A stretch of 40,124 bases of DNA, taken from UHGV virus genome UHGV-2156197; one strand, 5' to 3'. The position numbers and the translations under genes are program-made. Source of the stretch: a virus. Shown in pieces: positions 27,476 to 40,124 of the stretch. Position 1 is the first letter of the stretch; every line of letters starts with the position of its first letter. The notes under the pieces were generated by a model. It had not been told where the DNA came from. It saw nothing but the letters and a program-made list of their open reading frames with translations, and did no database searches.

Positions 27476-28158
27476 GCCGCCTGCCCCCCTGCAATATGTT
27501 CAGCCCACAAACCACCAATCCAGCGTACTCCCCTGGCAGTGAAACGCGTCTGGCTGAATGCGTGATTGGATGTGCTCGATGTTCCCGTCTTAACTTCAAA
27601 TCTTCCCGCGGAAATGTGCTGCGCCATGGGGGTAAGTGTGCCGCCGAGGCGATACAGGATATTGCGTTCAATAAGGAACAGACGAAACTCAGTTTCTTTT
27701 GCGTTGAGCAATTTGGCTACCTGCCGGAATGACATGGAGCCTTTTGCAGAGCAATAACGATCAACAAACTCCACTTTTGGCGCCGCGGCTGCCAGCTGGA
27801 TGGTCAGTTGCTCTTTCTGCTCGGCTAAATCAGCAGCCAGGCGAAGCGCTTCCGGCAATGAGCGGGGAACACTGACACTCTGCCCTTCTTCCAGTTCCTG
27901 CCAGCGATCGACGACCGCGGCGGTAAATTCAGGAGACAGTCTGGCAACAATCACCAGAGAGTCGCGTTTGTTAAAACGATACTCCTGGTACACATTACCG
28001 TTATGCTCAAAATCGAACTGCGCCAACGGCGCGGTTAAAATTCCCGCAGCAACAAGACGCTCAGCCGAGCGTTTCACGTCACTGTGTTTACTTTGAACCA
28101 GATCCGCAATATCACGGCTGGACATTGTTACTACACCATTCACGATTAACTGGCTCAT
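27472..28158 (-). CDS. Rha-family regulatory protein / antirepressor with KilA-C domain
   Basis: N-terminal Rha-like MSQLIVNGVVTMSSRDIADL...; C-terminal KilA-C-like RQVAKLL...ERNILYR; start trimmed to ATG 28158 with GGAG SD. Confidence 0.65.
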   Translation of the reverse strand: MSQLIVNGVVTMSSRDIADLVQSKHSDVKRSAERLVAAGILTAPLAQFDFEHNGNVYQEYRFNKRDSLVIVARLSPEFTAAVVDRWQELEEGQSVSVPRSLPEALRLAADLAEQKEQLTIQLAAAAPKVEFVDRYCSAKGSMSFRQVAKLLNAKETEFRLFLIERNILYRLGGTLTPMAQHISAGRFEVKTGTSSTSNHAFSQTRFTARGVRWIGGLWAEHIAGGQAA

Positions 28159-28171
28159 ACTTTTCTCCATA

Positions 28172-28558
28172 TCAGGCGGCTGCACCCGCCGGTTCATATC
28201 TGCTGATCGTTATCTCTACCCGACCTTTCGGCACAACGGGTCCCCATTCCACCAGCATGCGCTTAATCTGGCTGTCGTCTTCCCAGACACCCGCATGCGT
28301 CAGCGCGTCAAACAGGGCTTTGTTGTAATTATCGATATCCCGACGGCGCGCATCCGGCGGGTACAGAGTGATTTCTACCGCTGCCAGTTCAGTCGATGGC
28401 TTCGGGAGACGTCGTAATTGCTCAATGATCGCCACGCAGGCAGCGCTCTGGTATTTACGACCATCAGCGCTAATGAGGTGACGACCGGCCAGCGGCCCCT
28501 TGTTAGGGGCGCGCCAGTAAGTGTTCACGCTCGGAGGGAACGGGAGCACAAGTTTCAT
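28172..28558 (-). CDS. rusA: crossover junction endodeoxyribonuclease RusA
   Basis: MKLVLPFPPSVNTYWR...RRDIDNYNKALFDALTHAGVWEDDSQI matches the RusA family; AGGAGGTG SD before ATG 28558. Confidence 0.85.
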   Translation of the reverse strand: MKLVLPFPPSVNTYWRAPNKGPLAGRHLISADGRKYQSAACVAIIEQLRRLPKPSTELAAVEITLYPPDARRRDIDNYNKALFDALTHAGVWEDDSQIKRMLVEWGPVVPKGRVEITISRYEPAGAAA

Positions 28559-30489
28559 GCCACCTCCTGCTGTTGCACTGCACACAGTTCCGGAAGATTT
28601 GCCTCAACCAGCGCCCGGGCGAATGGTGGTGGTACCGCATTACCGCAGCGGGCTACCTGCTTATCTTTTGCATAGCGATTTCCACGGTAGTCCTGATCAA
28701 TAACGTAACCATCCGGGAAGCCCTGCGCTTTGTAGAGTTCATGCGGCTGCAACATGCGCATTCCGATATCAACGATCTGGTATTTAACCCCATCGATCGT
28801 TACCAGCCATTCATCGTCACTTTCCCCGCAATACGTCTCGAGAAATGTGCGTACCTCACCCACGTGTTGGCCACCAGCAGTGATTGTTGGCATTGGCACA
28901 TCAAGGCGTTGCCCGTCGCGGCATGTTCCACGCAGTTTCACCAGATGAGAGGCAACTACCGCATGATGGTCGACAGTGGTCACTGAATGCGCGGGTTCAT
29001 CCATACTGACACCCGGCCCCGTATAGTTACCGCCGTAGTGTTTCGCCAGGAATGCGCTCACCGTCGCAAATTTATTTCCGCCTGCAGTAACGGTCCCCAG
29101 CGGGTTATCCAGTCGCAGCACACGCGGTTCTTGTCCAGGTCGTTCGCCATAACCCATCTGAATCAGCGTAGGCGTTACCAGTTGAGATTTACCGCCACCA
29201 CCAGCGGTGATGGTTGCGCTCGGTTCGTCTGCACGGTGGCCGACGCTGGCCCCAAACTGGCGGGCTATCACTGGCGCAACAAGACAGGCTCGGGATTGCT
29301 TCAGAATGGTATGAGCAGGTTTATTCAGCGGGCGCGGTTTAGCCTGGTATTCACTACCACCATTACCCGCCAGGAATGGTGTCAATGCAGCCTCAACAAT
29401 CCCGAGAGCATGCCCGTTCCCGCCCGGGCGTTTTGACGTGCCAGCGGTTACCGTCGGAACAGGTTCGGTAACGGGCTGCCCGGTTGCGCCAGTGCGGAAT
29501 TTTGTAAGGTGTGGAACGGCTAACGCGTAGCCGAGTTTTTTAGTAATGGTCTGTAATGGCTCATTCAGTGACTGTCCGCGAAAAGCGTCATACGCATTTT
29601 TTGAGCTCGTGTGGTTGCACTTCACGATAAACGGCGACGCACTTTCGATAACAAAGCGCTGTATGCCGCGTGCGATCCGCTTCAGAGTGTTCTCTGCCAG
29701 CGGTTTTTTGCGGTCGAAGATGGACAGAGCCGGAACATTCCAGTCGATACATTCCGCAGCGGTACGCCATGGCATCAGCCTGCCGCTCTGCACCTCCAGT
29801 GACTTGGGATCCCCATGGGTTACAACAGGCCACTGAATAGGGCAACCATCGCAGCGCATAACCATGAAGAAGCGTTTGCGGATCGTCGGCGCGCCGTAAT
29901 CACACGCGCGCAGTTCGCGATAATCAACATCATATCCAAGCCCTTCCACCAGCTGTTTGGCCTGCGTGCTGCCAGGATCAATAGCAAGAAATTCGCAGAC
30001 CTCCGCCAGTGCCGGGTGATCGGCAGGAATGCCAGTGGAAAGCATGCCGACAAAAGCATTGAATGTTTCGCCAGTGCGGGCAGGGTCTGGACGCATTTCA
30101 TCGGCCAGCAGCGGTCCCCACGTTTTAAACTCTTCCACGTTCTCCAGCATCATCACGCGCGGTCGCTTCGCCAGTGCCCAACGCAGAACGATCCAGGCCA
30201 GACCGCGTATCTCTTTTTTCACAGGCTTTGCGCCTTTGGCCTTTGAGAAGTGTCGGCAGTCCGGGCTAAACCATGCCAGGCCAACAGGATTGCCGCCGGT
30301 GGCGGCTACCGGATCCACGTCAAATACGGATTCACAGTAATGCAGTGTGTCAGGGTGGTTCGTCTTGTGCATCGCAATGGCGTTTTCGTCGTGGTTGATC
30401 GCAATATCCACGCTGCGTCCGATCGCCAGTTCAATACCCGTTGATGCACCACCGCCACCAGCAAAGTTATCAACGATAATCTCACGCAT
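28555..30489 (-). CDS. DNA (cytosine-5)-methyltransferase, unusually long, with repeated target-recognition-like segments
   Basis: 644 aa; motif I FAGGGG, motif IV SPDCRHFS, motif VI ENV, motif X GNAV; four TxTAGG repeats in the variable region. Confidence 0.85.
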   Translation of the reverse strand: MREIIVDNFAGGGGASTGIELAIGRSVDIAINHDENAIAMHKTNHPDTLHYCESVFDVDPVAATGGNPVGLAWFSPDCRHFSKAKGAKPVKKEIRGLAWIVLRWALAKRPRVMMLENVEEFKTWGPLLADEMRPDPARTGETFNAFVGMLSTGIPADHPALAEVCEFLAIDPGSTQAKQLVEGLGYDVDYRELRACDYGAPTIRKRFFMVMRCDGCPIQWPVVTHGDPKSLEVQSGRLMPWRTAAECIDWNVPALSIFDRKKPLAENTLKRIARGIQRFVIESASPFIVKCNHTSSKNAYDAFRGQSLNEPLQTITKKLGYALAVPHLTKFRTGATGQPVTEPVPTVTAGTSKRPGGNGHALGIVEAALTPFLAGNGGSEYQAKPRPLNKPAHTILKQSRACLVAPVIARQFGASVGHRADEPSATITAGGGGKSQLVTPTLIQMGYGERPGQEPRVLRLDNPLGTVTAGGNKFATVSAFLAKHYGGNYTGPGVSMDEPAHSVTTVDHHAVVASHLVKLRGTCRDGQRLDVPMPTITAGGQHVGEVRTFLETYCGESDDEWLVTIDGVKYQIVDIGMRMLQPHELYKAQGFPDGYVIDQDYRGNRYAKDKQVARCGNAVPPPFARALVEANLPELCAVQQQEVA

Positions 30490-31363
30490 GGGTTACCCCC
30501 TGCATGCTGCCAACAAGACCACGCGCAATTGTGATAATTTCGCTGGTGGCCGTTCGTTCCAGCCAGAGTTGATTGATGTTGGCTTTCAGTTTGTTCTGCT
30601 GGGCCTCGCTCAATACATCAACGCCTTCCACCTGGTTAAACACCAGACCAACCTCGAGAGGCCAAATTCGTGACTCAGTTTCCGGTGTTGCTGCTGGTTC
30701 CTTAGCTGCCTGCATTGCAATTGTTTGCTCTTTACCAACGGCGAATTGAGCCAAAGCCATAAACGCCCGCCCTTTTTCTTCCAGTTCGGTACGGCTGATG
30801 TAGCTGAAACGCTCTCCGCGCCATGACTTATCAAAGATTGCAATAGCACCAGCAAAGAAAGCACCAGTGGGCTTCTGCTTATCATCAGCAGGAACAAACC
30901 ACACAGGGAGATCGAAGCCAATACGACCGCGGATAAACATGATGTGATCGGCATCTTCCGGCCACCATGTTTCACTTGTCGCCGCTTTAATGAGGAACAC
31001 GTAACGCCCACTCTTTTCACGCATTTCCATTGTGCGATCCATGATGTGGGTCATGCCGGTTATCGCCTGTTTCTCGTGGTACTGCGAACGGCTATATGGT
31101 GGATTACCGAATGCGGCCCCGCCGATTGATTCCAGCATTTCCGCCCAATCTTGTACCAGCGCGTTATCTTCGGCGGTGTACCACACAGGGCACTTAGCGT
31201 TATCGTCATCAGCAAAGAGATCCAGCGTCAGCGGGCCGAACATCGCATTAATGCCCCAAAAAAGCAGGTCCGGTGTCCGCCACTGATCGCCAACTTCTTT
31301 CAATTCGTGGGCTGGTTGGCTACGTAGTGCCACCAGCGCCTGGCAATATTTGTTTAACGTCAT
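30482..31363 (-). CDS. phage-type DNA N6-adenine methyltransferase (Dam family)
   Basis: 293 aa; WRTPDLLF and GNPPY motifs; about 100-aa C-terminal extension. Confidence 0.75.
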   Translation of the reverse strand: MTLNKYCQALVALRSQPAHELKEVGDQWRTPDLLFWGINAMFGPLTLDLFADDDNAKCPVWYTAEDNALVQDWAEMLESIGGAAFGNPPYSRSQYHEKQAITGMTHIMDRTMEMREKSGRYVFLIKAATSETWWPEDADHIMFIRGRIGFDLPVWFVPADDKQKPTGAFFAGAIAIFDKSWRGERFSYISRTELEEKGRAFMALAQFAVGKEQTIAMQAAKEPAATPETESRIWPLEVGLVFNQVEGVDVLSEAQQNKLKANINQLWLERTATSEIITIARGLVGSMQGVTHA

Positions 31364-32217
31364 CCTCTGAACCCCTCTGGAATCGTTGTTTCAACCGGAC
31401 CAAAAGCCATCACATCGCGCTTTTTCGCTCCCCAGTCAGCACGTTTAGGCCGTCCCTTCTGCTCCCAGCGGGTAGCGCTTTGCAGATAGCTCTCGAATTT
31501 CTTCGGGCCAAACAGCGTTTCCGGTCGCATGTACTGGTACTGCTCGTCGTTCTCGTGCCAGTGCTCATGCTTCAGGTCGATAACAAGTTGCAGGTCTGCA
31601 ACGCTGTATCCCTCACGCAGTCGGGCACGGATGTTCTCCAGGGATGTTTTTGATTTCTGATACCGGGATCCGCTGATTTGGTTCAAATGGGTCAGAACCA
31701 AAATTGCCTGATCAGTAATCACGACTTCAGGGTCTGGTTGCGCCGCAACCGGACAAGAGGGTTTTGAAGTTACTTGTGGATCTTGTTTTGATTTTACTGA
31801 CGGATCCCCGCCAGATTCTGACGGGTCAAAACCGCCGTTTTTGCCAGATTTCGACGGGTCAGTTTTTGAGGCGTCAAAATTTGATGCGTCAGATTTTGAC
31901 GTGTCAGAATCTGACAGTTGAGAAAATGCGGCAGCCTGAAGTTTCGCCACATTCAGGCGGTACACGTTCGACGCATTACGGTTACCATTACGGCGCTGTG
32001 TACGCGTGAGCCAGCCATCTTTTTCAAGCTTTGCGATTGCCGTTCTGATCGTGCTCGGCCCTGCGCCAAGCTGGCGAGCAATAGTTTCAATGGACGGCCA
32101 GCACACTCCCTCATCGCTGCTGAAATCAGCGAGGCGAGCCATGATCGCGACACTAGACAACTTCATGCCCGACGCCGCGCAACCATCCCATACGTAGCCG
32201 GTTAATTTAGTGCTCAT
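31360..32217 (-). CDS. replication initiator / replisome organizer (O-like)
   Basis: 285 aa; N-terminal HTH, low-complexity SD/SK linker, C-terminal conserved phage replication domain (LVLTHLNQISGSRYQ...); iterons inside the gene. Confidence 0.7.
   Translation of the reverse strand: MSTKLTGYVWDGCAASGMKLSSVAIMARLADFSSDEGVCWPSIETIARQLGAGPSTIRTAIAKLEKDGWLTRTQRRNGNRNASNVYRLNVAKLQAAAFSQLSDSDTSKSDASNFDASKTDPSKSGKNGGFDPSESGGDPSVKSKQDPQVTSKPSCPVAAQPDPEVVITDQAILVLTHLNQISGSRYQKSKTSLENIRARLREGYSVADLQLVIDLKHEHWHENDEQYQYMRPETLFGPKKFESYLQSATRWEQKGRPKRADWGAKKRDVMAFGPVETTIPEGFRG
31798..31921. repeat. origin-like iteron array inside the replication initiator gene
   Basis: Seven copies of TGAYGNGTCA-like 10-mer (31798, 31819, 31852, 31867, 31882, 31897, 31912); last five at exact 15-bp phasing; AT-rich tract just downstream. 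Confidence 0.6.
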
Positions 32218-32226
32218 GATCGTCCG

Positions 32227-32553
32227 TTATCTCCCTGAACTTTTGCCTGAAATGCTCAAGTGGGCTGAAGCATTCGTGCGGGTAGCCATCACGCAGGTAG
32301 ATAACGCGTTGTGTTTCTGGTTCCCAGCGGATAACACGGACAGACACTCCGCGGTGGTCTTTGAACCTTCGGTTAAGTTCGCGCACAGGCGTTTTGCCCT
32401 CCGGTTATAGACCCCCACAATTGAAACCGCCCTACTGTGGTTACACGGAACCCAGCGGTTTGATAATCTGCGTTCATACCGAAACAACGGAGTACCCGAA
32501 ACCGGGATCATCCTGAGTTGCGGTAGACGGTTAAAAGCCGTTAAACTGCTCAT
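32227..32553 (-). CDS. hypothetical protein (weak call)
   Basis: 108 codons from ATG 32553 with GGAG 11 nt upstream, co-oriented in the pR operon; composition not very protein-like. Confidence 0.25.
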   Translation of the reverse strand: MSSLTAFNRLPQLRMIPVSGTPLFRYERRLSNRWVPCNHSRAVSIVGVYNRRAKRLCANLTEGSKTTAECLSVLSAGNQKHNALSTCVMATRTNASAHLSISGKSSGR

Positions 32554-32558
32554 GCGGA

Positions 32559-33110
32559 TTATTTCTCCATACTCGAAGAGTTGTTCGCCAAGGCGCCCGG
32601 AGCTGCACACTCGCGGGCGTCACTCTTTTCAGCGACACAAAAAACTCGATAAAGAAGCGTTACGTGCTCCTGGAACTTCGCGATAACCTGATAGCTGTTT
32701 TCCTCAATCTGAGCACGCTCATCTGCGTCAATTACCCCATCAGCCGTGGCTTTACGTACAAAATTAGAATGACGACCTATCCATTCAATGGACTCCATCA
32801 GGCGCTGGTTTATATCGGCGTTATCCAGATCATCAACGTCTGCCAGCGGTACAAATACGCCCTGAGAATGGCGCGCAACGGCATCAGCAATATGAGTTGA
32901 ACCACCAGCACGTTGTAAAACCATTGCCCAGCCCAGCGGGAAGATTTGGTCGCCGTCAACACGAAGGCGGTTGAACAATGCGTTCTCTGTCACGCCCAAC
33001 CATTCCGCCGCCTCGGCATAACCACCAGGAAGATCGGTGATCGTTTTTTTTATCGCCGCCACCAGCCAGGCTGGCTGACGTTCGACTTTCCAAATAGGTT
33101 CGTTACCCAC
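32559..33110 (-). CDS. CII-like regulatory protein
   Basis: 183 aa, HTH-like segment; first gene after cro-like; GTG start with GGGGGGAG SD; family assignment uncertain. Confidence 0.45.
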   Translation of the reverse strand: MGNEPIWKVERQPAWLVAAIKKTITDLPGGYAEAAEWLGVTENALFNRLRVDGDQIFPLGWAMVLQRAGGSTHIADAVARHSQGVFVPLADVDDLDNADINQRLMESIEWIGRHSNFVRKATADGVIDADERAQIEENSYQVIAKFQEHVTLLYRVFCVAEKSDARECAAPGALANNSSSMEK

Positions 33111-33120
33111 AGCTCCCCCC

Positions 33121-33348
33121 TTATTCCTGTGGTTTGAGTTTTACTGAAGCATCGCTACGCTTTTCGTAAAGGTCGGGATGAAAAACCAATTTCCCCCCGG
33201 TTCGATATGCTGCTTCAGCTGCACGCCCTTTTGGGATAAGGCGACCAGTTCTATTACGCCACTGGTAAACAGCCTCGCTTGTGATTCCAAAAAATTCGGC
33301 AACCTTCTCAGTACTGCCGAAGTAGTTTTCAATATCATCGGTTGTCAT
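33121..33348 (-). CDS. Cro-like HTH repressor (YdaS-like)
   Basis: 75 aa; HTH FGSTEKVAEFFGITSEAVYQW; divergent from cI-like gene; AAGGAGG SD. Confidence 0.7.
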   Translation of the reverse strand: MTTDDIENYFGSTEKVAEFFGITSEAVYQWRNRTGRLIPKGRAAEAAYRTGGKLVFHPDLYEKRSDASVKLKPQE

Positions 33349-33356
33349 AACGCCTC

Positions 33357-33424
33357 CTTAGCTAAGTTTGATTAGATATTAATAACCAATCTAACTTTGG
33401 TCAATAAAAACTAAGATTGCTTAG
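33357..33424. promoter_or_regulatory. right operator region with three CTAAG-type operator sites
   Basis: CTAAG-TTTG-ATTAG (33362-33375), CTAAC-TTTG-GTCAA (33391-33404), perfect CTAAG-ATTG-CTTAG (33411-33424); plus palindrome CTTAGCTAAG 33357-33366. Confidence 0.5.
33376..33404 (-). promoter_or_regulatory. pR-like promoter for the cro-like operon
   Basis: Minus-strand -35 TTGACC (33404-33399), 17-bp spacer, -10 TAATAT (33381-33376); overlapped by operator sites. Confidence 0.5.
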
Positions 33425-33444
33425 CCTTTTAATTTATTTATGGT
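33416..33444 (+). promoter_or_regulatory. pRM-like promoter giving a leaderless cI-like mRNA
   Basis: -10 TATGGT (33439-33444) ends 6 nt before ATG 33451 and no SD is present; weak -35 ATTGCT inside the perfect operator. Confidence 0.4.
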
Positions 33445-33450
33445 GTTCAA

Positions 33451-34077
33451 ATGGAAACTGTCGGTCAGCGCATCAAAGCTCTCAGGCGCATAACCAAAAC
33501 CTCGCAGAAAGAACTGGGTAAGTTCTGCGGTGTTAGTGATGTGGCGGTTGGGTATTGGGAAAAAGACGTTAATGTGCCTGGAGGCGAGTCACTTGCGAAA
33601 CTTGCAAAGTATTTCAACACATCAATTGATTACATACTTTATGGCACTGAATTTGAAGGCAATCTGATAACCAAGATGCGAAGGATTCCGGTGATATCCT
33701 GGGTTCAGGCTGGACAGTTTACAGAATGTAAAGCAGCAGAAGTTTTCAGCGAAGTAGATAAGTGGATAGAGACATCACTCCGCATAGGGGATAGCTCCTT
33801 TGCATTGGAGGTTAAAGGTGATTCGATGACAAACCCTAATGGCCTCCCGACAATCCCTGAAGGGGCAACAGTCATAGTAGATCCAGATGCAGAGCCACTT
33901 CATGGAAAGATAGTCGTAGCCAGGCTTGATGGGACAAACGAGGCTACTGTAAAAAAACTTGTCATCGATGGGCCTCAAAAGTTCTTAGTTCCCTTAAATC
34001 CACGCTATCCAAACATTTCAATTAACGGTAATTGCCTGATCATCGGCGTTGTCAAAGGCGTTCAGTACGAGCTTTAA
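33451..34077 (+). CDS. CI-like repressor (XRE HTH plus S24 LexA-like autopeptidase domain)
   Basis: 208 aa; N-terminal HTH; C-terminal GDSM...KK catalytic Ser/Lys dyad of S24 peptidases. Confidence 0.85.
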   Translation: METVGQRIKALRRITKTSQKELGKFCGVSDVAVGYWEKDVNVPGGESLAKLAKYFNTSIDYILYGTEFEGNLITKMRRIPVISWVQAGQFTECKAAEVFSEVDKWIETSLRIGDSSFALEVKGDSMTNPNGLPTIPEGATVIVDPDAEPLHGKIVVARLDGTNEATVKKLVIDGPQKFLVPLNPRYPNISINGNCLIIGVVKGVQYEL

Positions 34078-34107
34078 CCCACCTCTAACCTTCCTCTTAA
34101 CATCAAG

Positions 34108-34160
34108 CTAAGAATAGTTTGGTGTTTTTTCTTGATCTAAAAGCTAAGTTAAGTTAGATT
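34108..34160 (+). promoter_or_regulatory. OL/pL-like operator-promoter
   Basis: CTAAG operator-like sites at 34108-34112 and 34144-34157 (CTAAGTTAAGTTAG, 13/16 identical to the 33362 operator); -35 TTGATC (34132-34137), 17-bp spacer, -10 TAGATT (34155-34160). Confidence 0.45.
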
Positions 34161-34165
34161 TTATT

Positions 34166-35349
34166 CATCAACAGCGAACAGGCAGGACGCCCACGAAGTA
34201 GCCGCCGGTGGCATATGAATAACCGGATGATTCGCTGACAGGTGTCTTCGGGAGGGGTAACAGAGGCGCGGCCTGATTAACCGCAACTCGTAGTCAAATT
34301 CCTATAGCTGGTGGCGATACCCAAGCCAGGAATACCAAAACCAGCAGGAGTGTTAAGGGCAAGGGCTAATCACCCCCTTAGCACCCCGCCCGAAGATACC
34401 TACCACCGCGCCTGATGTGGTTAAAAGCAGGCCAAAGCAATAACAAGTAACTCCCTGTTCTGGCGGCCCGGTGTTTTCCCGTTTGTCCGGTAACCGCCAG
34501 CCTTTTTCAGGGAAGATCAGCCGGTCATGGTAAGCATCTCGCAGGATGCTTACCGGGACTGGAAGAGTTACCACTTGGAGACGGTCCTTATAAATGTCCT
34601 GGAGAGTGGCGCTGACGACGGAGCGATAACCGAAGGTTGTATGCCCAACTGGAGGCATTGACTACCTAGAAAGATGGGGAGCATGAAAGGCTAAAGGGGC
34701 GGCTCTTTCATGGTGATCCCGCCCAGTTGGTGAAAAGTCGTGATGCGTCTTCATTCCAACCATGCTGGCTGTAAGGTCAGCACACAACGATGAGAGCATT
34801 GACGAGCAAGGCATAACGGCAGGTTCAATCCCTGCCACCGCTATACAGATAGCGGTGATGGGCAACGAAAAGGTCCGTTCAATTCGGATACCGGCAGTGC
34901 TCTCTTCGTTGTGGTGAATGGCGGGGCTGACCGTCAAACGGTTGAGAAAAGATAAGCAGGCGAAACGTTCTAAGCGAGCATACGGACTGATCGAACGCGG
35001 ATGGAACGGGCGGTTACGATATTGAAACACCGCGCCACTGAGCTGGAGTTCAGCACCAGCAACCACAACCAAATCACGCTGAGGACTGTGATAACCGTAG
35101 TTCCATGTGTGTAGTCTTGGCGGTACCTGGGCCTTCAACCTTATGCAAGGGGGACGAAGATAATGTTCTACCTCGGTACCGCCCTTTTTACGCAACAGAA
35201 AAGAGCATCACCGGGCGACGGGCTCATAACCCAATCCACCCGGGCAAAAAGAAAGCGGTCCCTGCAAGCCGCCGACCAATGCAGGTGCTCTTCTCTGTTG
35301 TGTATGGAGAAAGTTCGGCGGTTGCAGCCGCCTTAACGAGGGTAAAACC
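34166..35349 (+). other. ORF-free, hairpin-rich leader of the early-left operon (candidate structured RNA / antitermination region)
   Basis: No plus-strand ORF of 60 aa or more in the track; stops frequent in all frames; perfect 10-bp hairpin 34529-34554, interleaved stems 34682-34724, twin hairpins 34818-34857, terminator-like stem plus T-run 35120-35189. Confidence 0.3.
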
Positions 35350-35721
35350 ATGAGTAATGACCGCATGACCGTAGTGCCAGATTTTCTTGGCGAACTGGAT
35401 GCCGGCGTGTTCATGAACAAAATCGCGGCAGCACTTAATACCACCGCGCTTGGCGTTCTGAACAACGGCAACAAAGGCAAAGTAGTCCTCACATTTGATT
35501 TTGAGCGCATGGGTAATTCCGTTGAAGAGAAGCGCGTCAAGATCAAGCACAAGCTGAACTACAGCACCCCAACACCGCGTGGTAAAGCCTCCGAAGAGGA
35601 CACAACCGAAACCCCGATGTGGGTCAACAAAGGCGGGAAGCTCACCATCCTGCAGGAAGATCAGGGTCAGTTGTTCGGGATCACTGGCGCGGTGGATGGA
35701 AAGCTTAAAGCGGCTCAGTGA
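35350..35721 (+). CDS. hypothetical early protein
   Basis: 123 aa; ATG with GAGGG SD; first clear gene of the leftward early operon. Confidence 0.55.
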   Translation: MSNDRMTVVPDFLGELDAGVFMNKIAAALNTTALGVLNNGNKGKVVLTFDFERMGNSVEEKRVKIKHKLNYSTPTPRGKASEEDTTETPMWVNKGGKLTILQEDQGQLFGITGAVDGKLKAAQ

Positions 35722-35777
35722 TCCGCAACAACAAACTCACTGATACCACTTCGATCATCAGTTAATAAGGAATTTCT

Positions 35778-36548
35778 ATGTCTCAGTTAGACAGCGGTAC
35801 ATTTCAGCAGGTAAAAGACCTGGTCCTTTCTGGCTACCACCTGAATGATATTCATGGCCTGGCTTGCCCGACCGCATTGCTGCCAGATGGTACTAGCGTT
35901 GAAAGCCTTGAGCGCTTTTCTCTGGAGCGTTTCCGCTTCCGTGGTGCAATGACAACAACCAGTATTGACGATTTCGCACGTTATTCTAAAGGTTACGCCA
36001 GCGACAGTGAGCCAGCACGTTGCTTCATTGACGCTGACAACATGACCGCCCGTTCAGTGTTCAACATCGGCAACCTGGATAATCCCGGTCACGCCGATAA
36101 CGTTGCTTCGATCACCCTGAAGAAAACCGCGCCCTTCCGCGCGTTACTGCAGATCGATGGTCAACGTCTGAAGCAAAAGCAAATCGCCGAATGGCTGGAA
36201 GACTGGAGCGATTACCTGCTGGCGTTTGATGCTGATGGCAATACGATGCAGATTTCCCAGGCAGCTCAGGCTGTGCGTCGTATCACTATTCAGCAAGCAA
36301 CCCAGCAGGACCATGAAACTGGTGATTTCGCTGGTAAAAAATCGCTGATGCAAAGCGTTGAAGCAAGCAGCAAAGACGTAATGCCTGTGGCGTTTGAATT
36401 CAAATGTGTGCCGTATGAAGGTCTGGGCGAACGACGTTTTAGCTTGCGTAACAGCCTGCTGACCAGCGATGAACCCGCTTTGTTCTGCGCATCGTCCAAC
36501 TTGAAGCCCAGGAAGAAGAGATCGCCAATGAATTCCGCGATCTGCTGA
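35778..36548 (+). CDS. DUF2303 / YfdQ-like protein, C-terminus apparently frame-disrupted
   Basis: 256 aa in the track frame; a more protein-like C-terminus ([33 protein letters not shown]) continues in another frame to a stop at 36602-36604. Confidence 0.7.
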
Positions 36549-36616
36549 TCAGCAAGTTCGACGGTGAATCAGTGGAAACTTTCATCGGTAACTTTAAAGC
36601 CTAATTGCTCTGCATT

Positions 36617-36643
36617 AAATCCCCGGCACCGCGGGGATTTATT
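36617..36643 (+). terminator. rho-independent terminator after the YfdQ-like gene
   Basis: 9-bp stem AAATCCCCG / CGGGGATTT with 6-nt loop, then ATT; 13 nt after the alternative-frame stop. Confidence 0.5.
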
Positions 36644-36732
36644 GAAGCGTAATTCCATTAATTATCGCCACCCGGCGAGGGATTCGTGCAACCAAAATCT
36701 GCGCGGTGCAGCGCGCCAATATGGAGAAAACG

Positions 36733-37272
36733 ATGAGCTACATTCAAACATTATCCGGTAAAAAATTTAACTACCTGACCGCCACAATCGACGATATCGA
36801 TGTTGAAGATATCGCGACAGCTCTTTCCAACATCTGTCGATTCGCCGGGCATCTACCAGAGTTTTACAGTGTGGCTCAGCACTCTGTGCTTGTTAGCCAG
36901 ATTGTTCCGCCAGAGTTCGCCTTTGAAGCGTTGATGCACGACGCTGCGGAGGCATATTGCCAGGACATTCCGGCACCACTCAAAGCATTGCTGCCTGACT
37001 ACCAGCGCATGGAAACTTATGTTGATGGTCTTATCCGCTTTAAATTCGGTATCTCTCTTGAACAAGCTGCTGTCGTGAAATATGCCGATCTCACCATGTT
37101 AGCTACCGAGCGCCGTGATCTGGAAATCGATGACGGTTCGAAGTGGGAAATTCTCGAAGGTATTCCCTGCTCTGATCTCGTTCAGGTTATCCCTCTCCGT
37201 CCTGGTCAAGCCTATGGCCTGTTCATGAATCGCTTTAACGAACTGATGGAGCTGCGCCAATGCGCCACATGA
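36733..37272 (+). CDS. yfdR: HD-domain 5'-deoxynucleotidase, YfdR-like
   Basis: Close match to recalled E. coli YfdR (ICRFAGHL..FYSVAQH..FEALMHDA.EAYCQDIPAPLK); start trimmed to ATG 36733 with GGAG SD (track start GTG 36706). Confidence 0.8.
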   Translation: MSYIQTLSGKKFNYLTATIDDIDVEDIATALSNICRFAGHLPEFYSVAQHSVLVSQIVPPEFAFEALMHDAAEAYCQDIPAPLKALLPDYQRMETYVDGLIRFKFGISLEQAAVVKYADLTMLATERRDLEIDDGSKWEILEGIPCSDLVQVIPLRPGQAYGLFMNRFNELMELRQCAT

Positions 37273-37436: not shown

Positions 37437-37687
37437 CCGTATTTGAATATCTCCAGGCTCATCCGAATACCACCAGCGGTGAAATCGCCAAAGGTATGAA
37501 CAAAAAGACACCCGCGGTCGCTGGCGCATTATCGCAACTCTATGGCACCGGCCGGATCGTGAAGTCTGGTGTTCGCAAGGGCATTCCAACATACCGTGTT
37601 AACGATATGCCGTTTGGGTGTAGTAACAGCCTAACCATGATGTTTAACCAGCTGTTGAATAGAGCAAGACAGGGAACTGCACAATGA
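37433..37687 (+). CDS. hypothetical winged-helix-like DNA-binding protein
   Basis: 84 aa; HTH-like TSGEIAKGMNKKTPAVAGALSQL; ATGA coupling on both sides. Confidence 0.5.
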   Translation: MTVFEYLQAHPNTTSGEIAKGMNKKTPAVAGALSQLYGTGRIVKSGVRKGIPTYRVNDMPFGCSNSLTMMFNQLLNRARQGTAQ

Positions 37688-38223
37688 GCAAATCACTTGA
37701 AGTGCTGATTGCCAAAATCAAAAAGCAGATTGAAAGCTATGACTCCGTAATTTTGAAGGAAAGTGAAGCCATGGCACTTATCGCAGAACTGGAGGCAAAA
37801 TCCGCGCCAGAATCGTTCAGTGTCATCGGCAAAAACATTTTATCGCAGGATAACCGTATTACATCCGACCCGATGTTTTGCGTTTACCAAAAGCGCGAAA
37901 TCGTTGTTGATGCTCATTACGACTATGACCGCATCGTTTGGATTGATGAAGATGGTAACGAAGCTAATGAGCGCCAACGAATGCGCCTTGAATTGCTCCA
38001 TGAAAACTTCCGTGAACCACCTGAAAAATGGCGCAGAGTTGCCCTGAAAGAAATTGATGATTTCGTTACCTGCTGTTTCACCGAACAGGGATGCAAAGAC
38101 TACCTAGCATGTAATGGCCACAACCTACGACTGCCATTCATCTACGTCAAAAGCGGATTTAGGAATGCTGAGTTTATCAGCGTTCGTAACTGGCTCGCTG
38201 GCATTGGCGTGAAGGGAGAGTGA
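37684..38223 (+). CDS. hypothetical protein
   Basis: 179 aa, ATG start overlapping the previous stop. Confidence 0.6.
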   Translation: MSKSLEVLIAKIKKQIESYDSVILKESEAMALIAELEAKSAPESFSVIGKNILSQDNRITSDPMFCVYQKREIVVDAHYDYDRIVWIDEDGNEANERQRMRLELLHENFREPPEKWRRVALKEIDDFVTCCFTEQGCKDYLACNGHNLRLPFIYVKSGFRNAEFISVRNWLAGIGVKGE

Positions 38224-38520: not shown

Positions 38521-38720
38521 CAACTAACAACCACCCGGCGAACGGTCCTGTATCACTCGATCGCCTGCACCAGATACGCGAAATACTCAGCAAAGCAGCA
38601 GCACAAAGTGACGGCGGTAATCTCGGATACGCAATGGCTGATGCTGTGAAAGTGATTGATGGGGCTATTGCTGCGCTGACTGCCGCTGTCACCCAGGTTA
38701 TCGAAGGAGAAGGACGATGA
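38517..38720 (+). CDS. hypothetical protein
   Basis: 67 aa, ATGA overlap with the upstream stop, GGAG SD. Confidence 0.5.
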   Translation: MTTNNHPANGPVSLDRLHQIREILSKAAAQSDGGNLGYAMADAVKVIDGAIAALTAAVTQVIEGEGR

Positions 38721-39655
38721 GCGAAATCAGCCAAACAGAACGAGTGTCAGACGAAGAACTCGACCAGATGATATGGAAGTTAGAACGTGATGGTATGACG
38801 CCAAAGCAGCTTTCGCTGATGAGAGAGCTGCGGGAGCGAAGGAAGGCTGTGGGTGAGCCGGTGGCGCAGATTGAAATAATTAGCGGTGTTCTGGTTAACG
38901 AGAGATGGATGCATAGTTCACTGCCAAATGGATGGCATGATTTATATGCATCACGGCTATCAGGTAATTCCGAACAACTCGAACCTGTAAGTAATCGTGA
39001 TGAGTTGAAAAAGGGATTGGCAGCCATTCGTAACTCGGGCATAGCAATCGACGGCGATATCTCCGCTTCTGACGCTGATAAGCTTGCGTCGATTATTCGT
39101 AAGTGGGCCGACGCACCAGTGCCTGCTTCCACAGATGAGCGGGAAGCATTTAACGCTTGGAATAATGATATTGACTGCCCTCTGGCTGGGCTTACTACCA
39201 AGCAAGCAGCATGGCTGGCATGGCTTAAACGTTCAGGCACCATCAAAACTTTCGACGCTATAAGTCCGCCTTTCAAGGTGCATGACGAGTTTGAGGTATG
39301 GGCCAAAGCTGAGGGATTAATACATGATTCATATGGCCTGAGAACCATTAATTCTAGTGCTGATGTTGCGAGAAAAGCATGGAACGCTTGCCGCGCCGCC
39401 ATGCTTCAGGCCGATGGTACCCTTACCAATGAGGGCACCATACATACTGGCAACTCTCCGGCAACTCCGGATTGTTGGTGCCGTACTTGCCGTCCCGTAA
39501 CGATGAGTGACATGCGATTTGTCGTTTGCCCTGACTGTGGAAACAAGCGCTGCCCTCATGCCAATGACCACAGGAATGTTTGCGCTGGAAGTAACGAGCC
39601 AGGACAGATTGGTAGCGCATATCCAGCAGCACCGCAGCAGGAGGTGAAGCCGTGA
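38717..39655 (+). CDS. hypothetical protein with C-terminal Cys-rich (zinc-ribbon-like) region
   Basis: 312 aa; C-terminal CWCRTCRP...CPDCGNKRCPH; ATGA coupling. Confidence 0.6.
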   Translation: MSEISQTERVSDEELDQMIWKLERDGMTPKQLSLMRELRERRKAVGEPVAQIEIISGVLVNERWMHSSLPNGWHDLYASRLSGNSEQLEPVSNRDELKKGLAAIRNSGIAIDGDISASDADKLASIIRKWADAPVPASTDEREAFNAWNNDIDCPLAGLTTKQAAWLAWLKRSGTIKTFDAISPPFKVHDEFEVWAKAEGLIHDSYGLRTINSSADVARKAWNACRAAMLQADGTLTNEGTIHTGNSPATPDCWCRTCRPVTMSDMRFVVCPDCGNKRCPHANDHRNVCAGSNEPGQIGSAYPAAPQQEVKP

Positions 39656-39822
39656 CCTTCAACCGCTACGTAATCACCGTAATGCTGCCGAACCTGATTT
39701 TCTGCAAATTAGTCGGCAAGCCAGCCATGGCGATTGAGAAGGTGGCTCGCCGGGTGCGCCTGGCGTGTGGCCGCCGCATGGAGCGCGTCATGATGGATGC
39801 ACCACCCAAGGAGGTTAAGTGA
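39652..39822 (+). CDS. hypothetical small protein (56 aa), weak call
   Basis: GTG overlapping the previous stop (GTGA); stop overlaps the next ATG (TGATG); hydrophobic N-terminus. Confidence 0.3.
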   Translation: MTFNRYVITVMLPNLIFCKLVGKPAMAIEKVARRVRLACGRRMERVMMDAPPKEVK

Positions 39823-40124
39823 TGGCTAACCTGCAGCTTGCAGTTAACGGTGAATACTTCGACCAGATGAAGCGCGGCGAGAAGGTTGAAGAGTATCGCC
39901 TGGTAAACCCTTACTGGTGCCGCAGACTGTCCCATGGCCATAACCAACAATTACCACGTCGCTTTGACCGACTGATTATCACTCGTGGTTATCCAAAGCG
40001 TGATGACCAGAGCAAGCGTATTGACCTCCCGTATAACGGTTACGAAGTGAAGGTGATAACACATCCGCACTTCGGGCCTGACCCGGTAAAGGTCTTCGTT
40101 ATCAAGGTGAATATCGATGCCTAA
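39822..40124 (+). CDS. hypothetical protein
   Basis: 100 aa from ATG 39822 with AAGGAGG SD 7 nt upstream (track start GTG 39819); stop at 40122-40124. Confidence 0.55.
   Translation: MANLQLAVNGEYFDQMKRGEKVEEYRLVNPYWCRRLSHGHNQQLPRRFDRLIITRGYPKRDDQSKRIDLPYNGYEVKVITHPHFGPDPVKVFVIKVNIDA

Follow-up and report, generated by a model that had tools for sequence, protein, structure and literature searches.

Is the yfdQ-like gene of this prophage broken by a mutation, misrepresented by a sequencing error, or read in two frames by the ribosome? The window, i.e., the whole stretch of DNA that was analysed (40,124 nucleotides, UHGV virus genome UHGV-2156197), carries on its plus strand a truncated yfdQ-like (DUF2303) open reading frame (35778-36548), and the ORF list and its translation give a product of 256 amino acids that ends at a TGA codon (36546-36548). 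The original prediction had described a frame discontinuity at the 3' end of this gene, and had pointed to a second frame, open from 36473 to 36604, which has no start codon and encodes a more protein-like tail; it had proposed a single-base indel, a sequencing error or a recoding event, lying between about 36473 and 36505. Both frames are indeed as described. The second one, in -1 relative to the start codon, opens just past an in-frame TGA (36470-36472) and runs to a TAA at 36602-36604. We found no usable start codon in it, as the sole candidate is a GTG at position 36572, ten codons before the stop, and independent translation of this tail was rejected on that ground. A terminator had also been placed after the TAA; a terminator-like hairpin with a 10-bp stem and a 6-nt loop is present there on the plus strand (36616-36641), although it starts 11 nt past the stop codon and not 13. 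This hairpin is far more stable than expected (-20.6 kcal/mol, z = -4.5, with 0 of 200 shuffles equally stable by fold energy), is kept in the aligned homologues, and marks the original end of the gene.

The protein can be assigned to the YfdQ/DUF2303 family by profile match, since Pfam PF10065 recognizes the 256-residue product with 196.6 bits (cut-off 26.6) over profile positions 28-228 of 269, and PHROG 210 matches it at 5.7e-90 over positions 2-237 of 274. A complete domain in one frame, reaching profile position 269 in a protein of about 265-288 amino acids, is not found in the window allele. Repair of a single base yields a protein of 275 amino acids that matches PF10065 over positions 28-269 of 269 with 227.4 bits, a gain of 31 bits. 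When this repaired protein was compared with 5.8 billion proteins, matches of 275 amino acids were returned at 97-99% identity, most of them named by NCBI as YfdQ family protein of Citrobacter freundii, C. meridianamericanus or Salmonella. Residues 1-233 of the window product are thus authentic, while residues 234-256 correspond to 23 residues of out-of-frame read-through. The displaced remnant of the original coding sequence lies on the plus strand at 36479-36604 (codons F235 to A275 plus the TAA), and the tail encoded in the -1 frame is 100% identical to the tails of four intact homologues (P0004, P0010, P0015 and P0021) in the protein alignment. None of the homologues ends with the tail of the annotated frame, so that the alignment that had been suggested as a check speaks for the original observation. 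An open stretch of 44 codons could have arisen by chance, but chance does not account for a match, residue by residue, to the end of intact homologues, and the -1 frame encodes the true C-terminus of the YfdQ/DUF2303 family.

This C-terminus is a conserved part of the protein. Its conservation was assessed in the best 150 representatives of clusters at 50% identity, among which 142 are at least 255 amino acids long; residues aligned at or beyond position 270 are present in all 142 of these full-length representatives. Glycine 271 is invariant in this set, and R238 and P233 (91% each), F253 (89%), E247 (87%) and E243 (86%) are strongly conserved, whereas no column of the region is less conserved than position 234, where the top residue reaches only 18%. 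The intact homologue P0010 was modelled with AlphaFold2 from an alignment of 108 sequences (mean pLDDT 90.3, pTM 0.84), and the model predicts a strand (233-239), a helix (242-260) and a second strand (266-270) in the tail, with block-mean pLDDT values of about 90-98. It was used instead of a model obtained from a shallow alignment, which was discarded (pLDDT 53.8). According to the deep-alignment model, the deletion would remove three ordered elements together with the most conserved residue of the region.

The position of the lesion could be determined exactly, and falls within the proposed interval: one T, present in intact homologues, is missing between 36476 and 36477 (plus strand), and DNA alignments show a single gap at this column. 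A 1-nt deletion is thus the alternative that proved right. Intact homologues read GAACCC-T-GCTTTG at this place, where the T falls in codon 234 of an ancestral gene of 275 codons; the window has GAACCCGCTTT where they have GAA CCC TGC TTT (E P C F). The site takes two forms among homologues, GAA CCC TGC TTT GTT (E P C F V) or GAA CCG GTG TTT GTA, and the window sequence there is GAACCCGCTTTGTT. The missing T sits between a C and a G, outside any homopolymer, and belongs to neither of the two runs that had been suspected (CCC at 36474-36476 and TTT at 36479-36481). In complete E. coli genomes, a megablast with positions 35700-36680 returned nine matches, all annotated as 'YfdQ family protein' and each with 982 bases for 981 query bases. 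The single gap is found in alignments to E. coli ECONIH4 (93.8% nucleotide identity), E. coli LR881940 (77%) and phage Phi06_2987, and again in those to four loci (L008-L011) encoding YfdQ proteins of 275 amino acids named Citrobacter freundii by NCBI. The aligned intact homologues from E. coli, phage and Citrobacter, at 77-95% nucleotide identity, therefore all have one extra base in the same column, and those from E. coli and phage translate in one frame to 275-276 residues. The gene thus shows a feature expected of a frameshift pseudogene, namely an indel that is not a multiple of three, past which the homology is picked up again in another frame. An exact look-up of the repaired protein in the collection, which would have retrieved the immediate intact ancestor, gave no match, and the closest intact DNA retrieved differs from the window gene by 38 substitutions.

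We consider it highly probable that this is a genuine single-nucleotide deletion in a prophage yfdQ, which gave rise to a young frameshift allele and most likely a pseudogene. One T would have been lost between 36476 and 36477, in codon 234 of the 275-codon ancestor; ribosomes would then read 23 out-of-frame codons and stop at 36546-36548, producing 256 residues without the conserved C-terminal strand, helix and strand of the family, and 41 ancestral codons with the original stop would be left untranslated in the -1 frame ahead of the terminator hairpin. The new tail corresponds to the acidic helix region read out of frame, where GAAGCCCAGGAAGAAGAG is read AAG CCC AGG AAG AAG AGA, i.e., KPRKKR.

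A first alternative is that the T is present in the real DNA, the gene being intact and its interruption a product of sequencing or assembly. Single-base indels are a common sequencing artefact, and the 256-residue product has no NCBI protein record, whereas its exact neighbours do; this missing record would fit a pseudogene call by the annotation pipeline, and would fit the rarity of the allele as well. Yet the exact-sequence look-up recovered the same frameshifted product on 13 contigs from independent assemblies, among them ENA ERZ28657050 and ERZ27277669 and Logan SRR34348976 and SRR11402676; the cluster look-up gives JGI/IMG, Logan and ENA as its sources. The four carrier loci that were fetched (L004-L007) represent three structural contexts, and over the 827 nt of the gene all four have the sequence of the window, with 0 differences. 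The place of the missing base, away from any homopolymer, also speaks against an artefact, as do the aligned intact relatives with the same local sequence, which are read with the T, and the repaired protein sequence, which occurs nowhere in the collection. At the level of assemblies, the lesion lies in the DNA and did not arise in a single assembly. Judging from these assemblies, a sequencing error, whether one-off or systematic, is very unlikely, and we regard an intact gene hidden behind such an error as hardly credible.

The carriers also inform on the surroundings of the allele. Over 7.6 kb, locus L006 and the window are 100% identical, while L004 and L007 differ from the window by a 3-nt indel at 38526-38528, and L004 by one further substitution at 38541. 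Three of the loci (L004, L005 and L007) follow the window no further than 38582, with one small gap each; L007 already ends at 38558. Past 38582, the right arm of L004 and L005 is different and carries genes for a dATP/dGTP pyrophosphohydrolase, an exonuclease and an integrase beside a DUF72 gene. This change of the right arm (38582-40124 in the window) is a mosaic module exchange downstream of the frameshift allele. Locus L005 (Logan SRR34348976_16) is moreover without positions 27573-34924 of the window, a block of 7.3 kb reaching from the DUF968 gene to just upstream of yfdP and holding methylases, replication genes, cro and the repressor; this is probably a defective prophage that has undergone a deletion, or else a misassembly. 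The allele is rare: its cluster at 90% identity comprises 919 distinct sequences, of which it is one, and the listed members are nearly all 275 amino acids long.

A second alternative is recoding, in which the deletion is real and some ribosomes slip by -1 within 36473-36548, the interval in which a shift must occur in order to reach the tail. Such slippage would most plausibly take place on T_TTG (36479-36482), the sole X_XXZ tetramer of this interval, where it would restore the whole conserved tail; the resulting product (...DEPALVLRIVQ...) would have 275 residues and would be unlike its relatives only at positions 234-235. That position 234 is so poorly conserved, and that the protein sequence of the tail is still intact, would both be compatible with this idea. 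The intact tail is nevertheless explained by the youth of the allele, and the sequence offers little of what a programmed site requires. As had been noted originally, there is no classical slippery heptamer at the junction, and we found no X_XXY_YYZ heptamer in the whole yfdQ gene. No Shine-Dalgarno-like motif was detected in 36440-36500, and the 78 nt that follow the junction have a fold no more stable than that of shuffled sequences (-18.5 kcal/mol, z = -0.63); neither an upstream nor a downstream stimulatory element was thus found. Runs of at least four identical bases, as expected for transcriptional slippage, are absent from 36440-36560. A +1 route through the rare AGG and AGA codons of the out-of-frame tail was rejected, as the +1 frame has stops. 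The surrounding sequence is the same as in intact genes that need no shift, which argues against an evolved slippage site.

The distribution of the break points in the same direction. A scan of one genome per species detected 45 yfdQ loci at 53-97% identity, from Citrobacter, Erwinia, Mixta, Klebsiella, Kluyvera, Serratia, Kosakonia, E. coli and others. The match continues in a single frame to residue 273 at least in 43 of the 45, and to residue 271 in one more, so that 44 of the 45 are unbroken at the site; the only broken locus, that of Serratia symbiotica, is interrupted elsewhere, by several frameshifts. Single-frame proteins of about 275 amino acids also make up the 120 closest homologues listed. 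The break is therefore not conserved in diverged homologues, being common to none of the 45 species loci, of the 120 closest homologues listed or of the 142 family representatives. The recoding that had been suggested among the possible explanations consequently finds neither a slippery site nor a stimulator, nor any other homologue with the same break, and we hold it to be most improbable.

The window itself provides a positive control for this comparison. Upstream of the tape-measure gene, a tail-assembly-chaperone pair is encoded on the minus strand by two ORFs (13046->12671 and 12687->12432) that overlap by 17 nt. The first ends in ...KLEDAEKN and the second, in the -1 frame, starts with GCGKKLTNSPW...; within the overlap lies an in-phase A_AAA_AAC (12678-12672, minus strand), which has the canonical form of the programmed -1 sites known from G/GT genes of phages. 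This overlap thus looks like a G/GT programmed -1 frameshift. The yfdQ junction has nothing comparable, and a canonical heptamer at what seems a true programmed site of the same window weighs further against recoding in yfdQ.

A weaker form of slippage may be envisaged, in which tRNA-Leu would slip by -1 on T_TTG (36479-36482) at a low level, in an unprogrammed way, and partly compensate the deletion. We give this very little chance of being true. If it were, a lysogen would make a little full-length YfdQ in addition to the truncated form, which could explain the persistence of the allele; in a variant of this reading, the truncated form would act as a poisoning subunit of the YfdQ oligomer.

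Returning to the deletion as the preferred explanation, the allele is young, because its stranded tail shows no decay and has the same residues as intact relatives, and because the four carriers are identical, which implies no substitutions since the deletion. Most likely the gene has become a pseudogene, and a crippled protein is the most that it would encode: the truncated product would be non-functional or unstable, since the strand, helix and strand as well as the invariant G271 are missing. The expected loss of function is judged from these conserved residues and from the modelled elements. Against such a loss stands the persistence of the allele, which occurs in several samples, has come through at least two rearrangements and is thus at least tolerated.

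The mutation could thus be real and the 256-residue protein nevertheless retain or acquire a function. After all, 233 of the 275 residues and most of the domain remain, and the allele has been found repeatedly, having survived both the module exchange and the 7.3-kb deletion. The product might be a partly active form or, via its basic tail KPRKKRS, a poisoning subunit of a YfdQ oligomer; the 36 chains in the YfdQ PDB entry may, by inference, reflect a large homo-oligomer, and a defective subunit could matter in such an assembly. On the other side, G271, the one residue of the tail that is invariant, is lost together with three core elements that were modelled with confidence, and the new tail is an out-of-frame reading of EAQEEEIA... 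that occurs in no other protein found. The carriers being identical, there is no sign of selection either. We consider a functional 256-residue protein unlikely. In terms of mechanism, a deletion of this kind is an ordinary lesion for a prophage accessory gene.

From its sequence, the window appears to be a lambdoid prophage, with an early-left operon related to those of ST64B, phiNP and LLS. A 53-mer across the junction had no exact match in a DNA search of species-representative genomes; the allele is therefore absent from the species representatives, and we inferred the host from exact neighbour proteins. Three of these are named Citrobacter freundii by NCBI, namely an HD hydrolase (36733-37272), a protein of 179 amino acids (37684-38223) and one of 312 amino acids (38717-39655), and the element looks like a lambdoid prophage of this species. 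None of the complete E. coli genomes has the region at more than 94% identity. The genes are arranged in the order yfdP, yfdQ, terminator hairpin and HD-domain 5'-deoxynucleotidase. The yfdP-like gene (35350-35721, plus strand, 123 amino acids, PHROG 204) is intact, with PF27127 (YfdP) recognized on the same gene in L004, and its exact sequence is widespread in Enterobacteriaceae. The yfdR/yfbR-like gene for the HD-domain 5'-deoxynucleotidase (36733-37272, plus strand, 179 amino acids, PHROG 318 at 1e-94) is intact as well, its exact protein being named HD family hydrolase [Citrobacter freundii]. Because this gene comes after the terminator hairpin, the premature TGA in yfdQ is unlikely to have a polar effect on it. 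The function of yfdQ and yfdP is not known (PMC12315714), and fold searches gave no functional lead for YfdQ. [quoted passage not shown]

Upstream of yfdP, a stretch of about 1.27 kb (34078-35349, GC 0.52-0.55) separates this gene from the LexA/cI-like repressor gene. It contains no ORF matching Pfam or PHROGs, and Rfam scans of the whole window and of this ORF-poor region gave nothing credible. Pieces of it are 85-92% conserved, and unannotated, in many lambdoid phages (Salmonella PAT1, 65FD, Stx2 phages), and phage phiNP has an unannotated gap of about 990 bp at the equivalent place. The stretch could correspond to a leader or antitermination RNA, or to unannotated small genes.

For annotation, the gene is best labelled as a frameshifted YfdQ-family pseudogene with its ancestral end at 36604, and not as a protein of 256 amino acids with a novel basic C-terminus. 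Screens for recoding may also use it as a clean negative control, since the tail-chaperone genes of this window contain what looks like a true programmed -1 site with a canonical heptamer. Given an assay for YfdQ, the allele would also serve as a natural C-terminal truncation to be compared with intact alleles.

When compared with known systems, the window gene is closest to the intact YfdQ proteins of the Citrobacter freundii complex (P0010 and P0003, 275 amino acids), which are 97-99% identical to it over residues 1-233 and whose residues 235-275 are identical to its stranded tail. Their loci have the same order (yfdP, yfdQ, HD hydrolase), but they possess the T at 36476/36477, whereas the window product stops at 256 amino acids after 23 unrelated residues. 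The E. coli chromosomal yfdQ loci are only 56% identical to P0010 in the genome scan. The yfdQ of E. coli K-12, in the cryptic prophage CPS-53, belongs like the window gene to a yfdP-yfdQ-yfdR cluster. The only solved relative is PDB 9o7m ('YfdQ Protein', 274 amino acids), with 36 chains of one sequence, which may form a large homo-oligomer. It is homologous to the repaired query over the full length (E = 2e-41, 34-273 versus 33-272), including the part that is lost here, and is intact but distant (145 bits versus about 600 for the Citrobacter proteins). The fold search did not return this entry, and a literature search for 9O7M found no paper.

Programmed -1 sites such as those of the tail chaperone G/GT and dnaX types likewise show two overlapping frames, one protein-like sequence and a -1 shift. 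These sites have an in-phase X_XXY_YYZ heptamer that is conserved across homologues. Unlike them, the yfdQ junction lacks a heptamer and a stimulator, and its break is confined to one allele. A parallel in kind is the yfdQ remnant of the aphid symbiont Serratia symbiotica (L057, 1501-2278), where the gene is split over three frames and in advanced decay. It is likewise a prophage gene broken by indel with intact neighbours, but the Serratia copy has diverged and accumulated several frameshifts, whereas the window allele carries a single lesion without further decay and is thus much younger.
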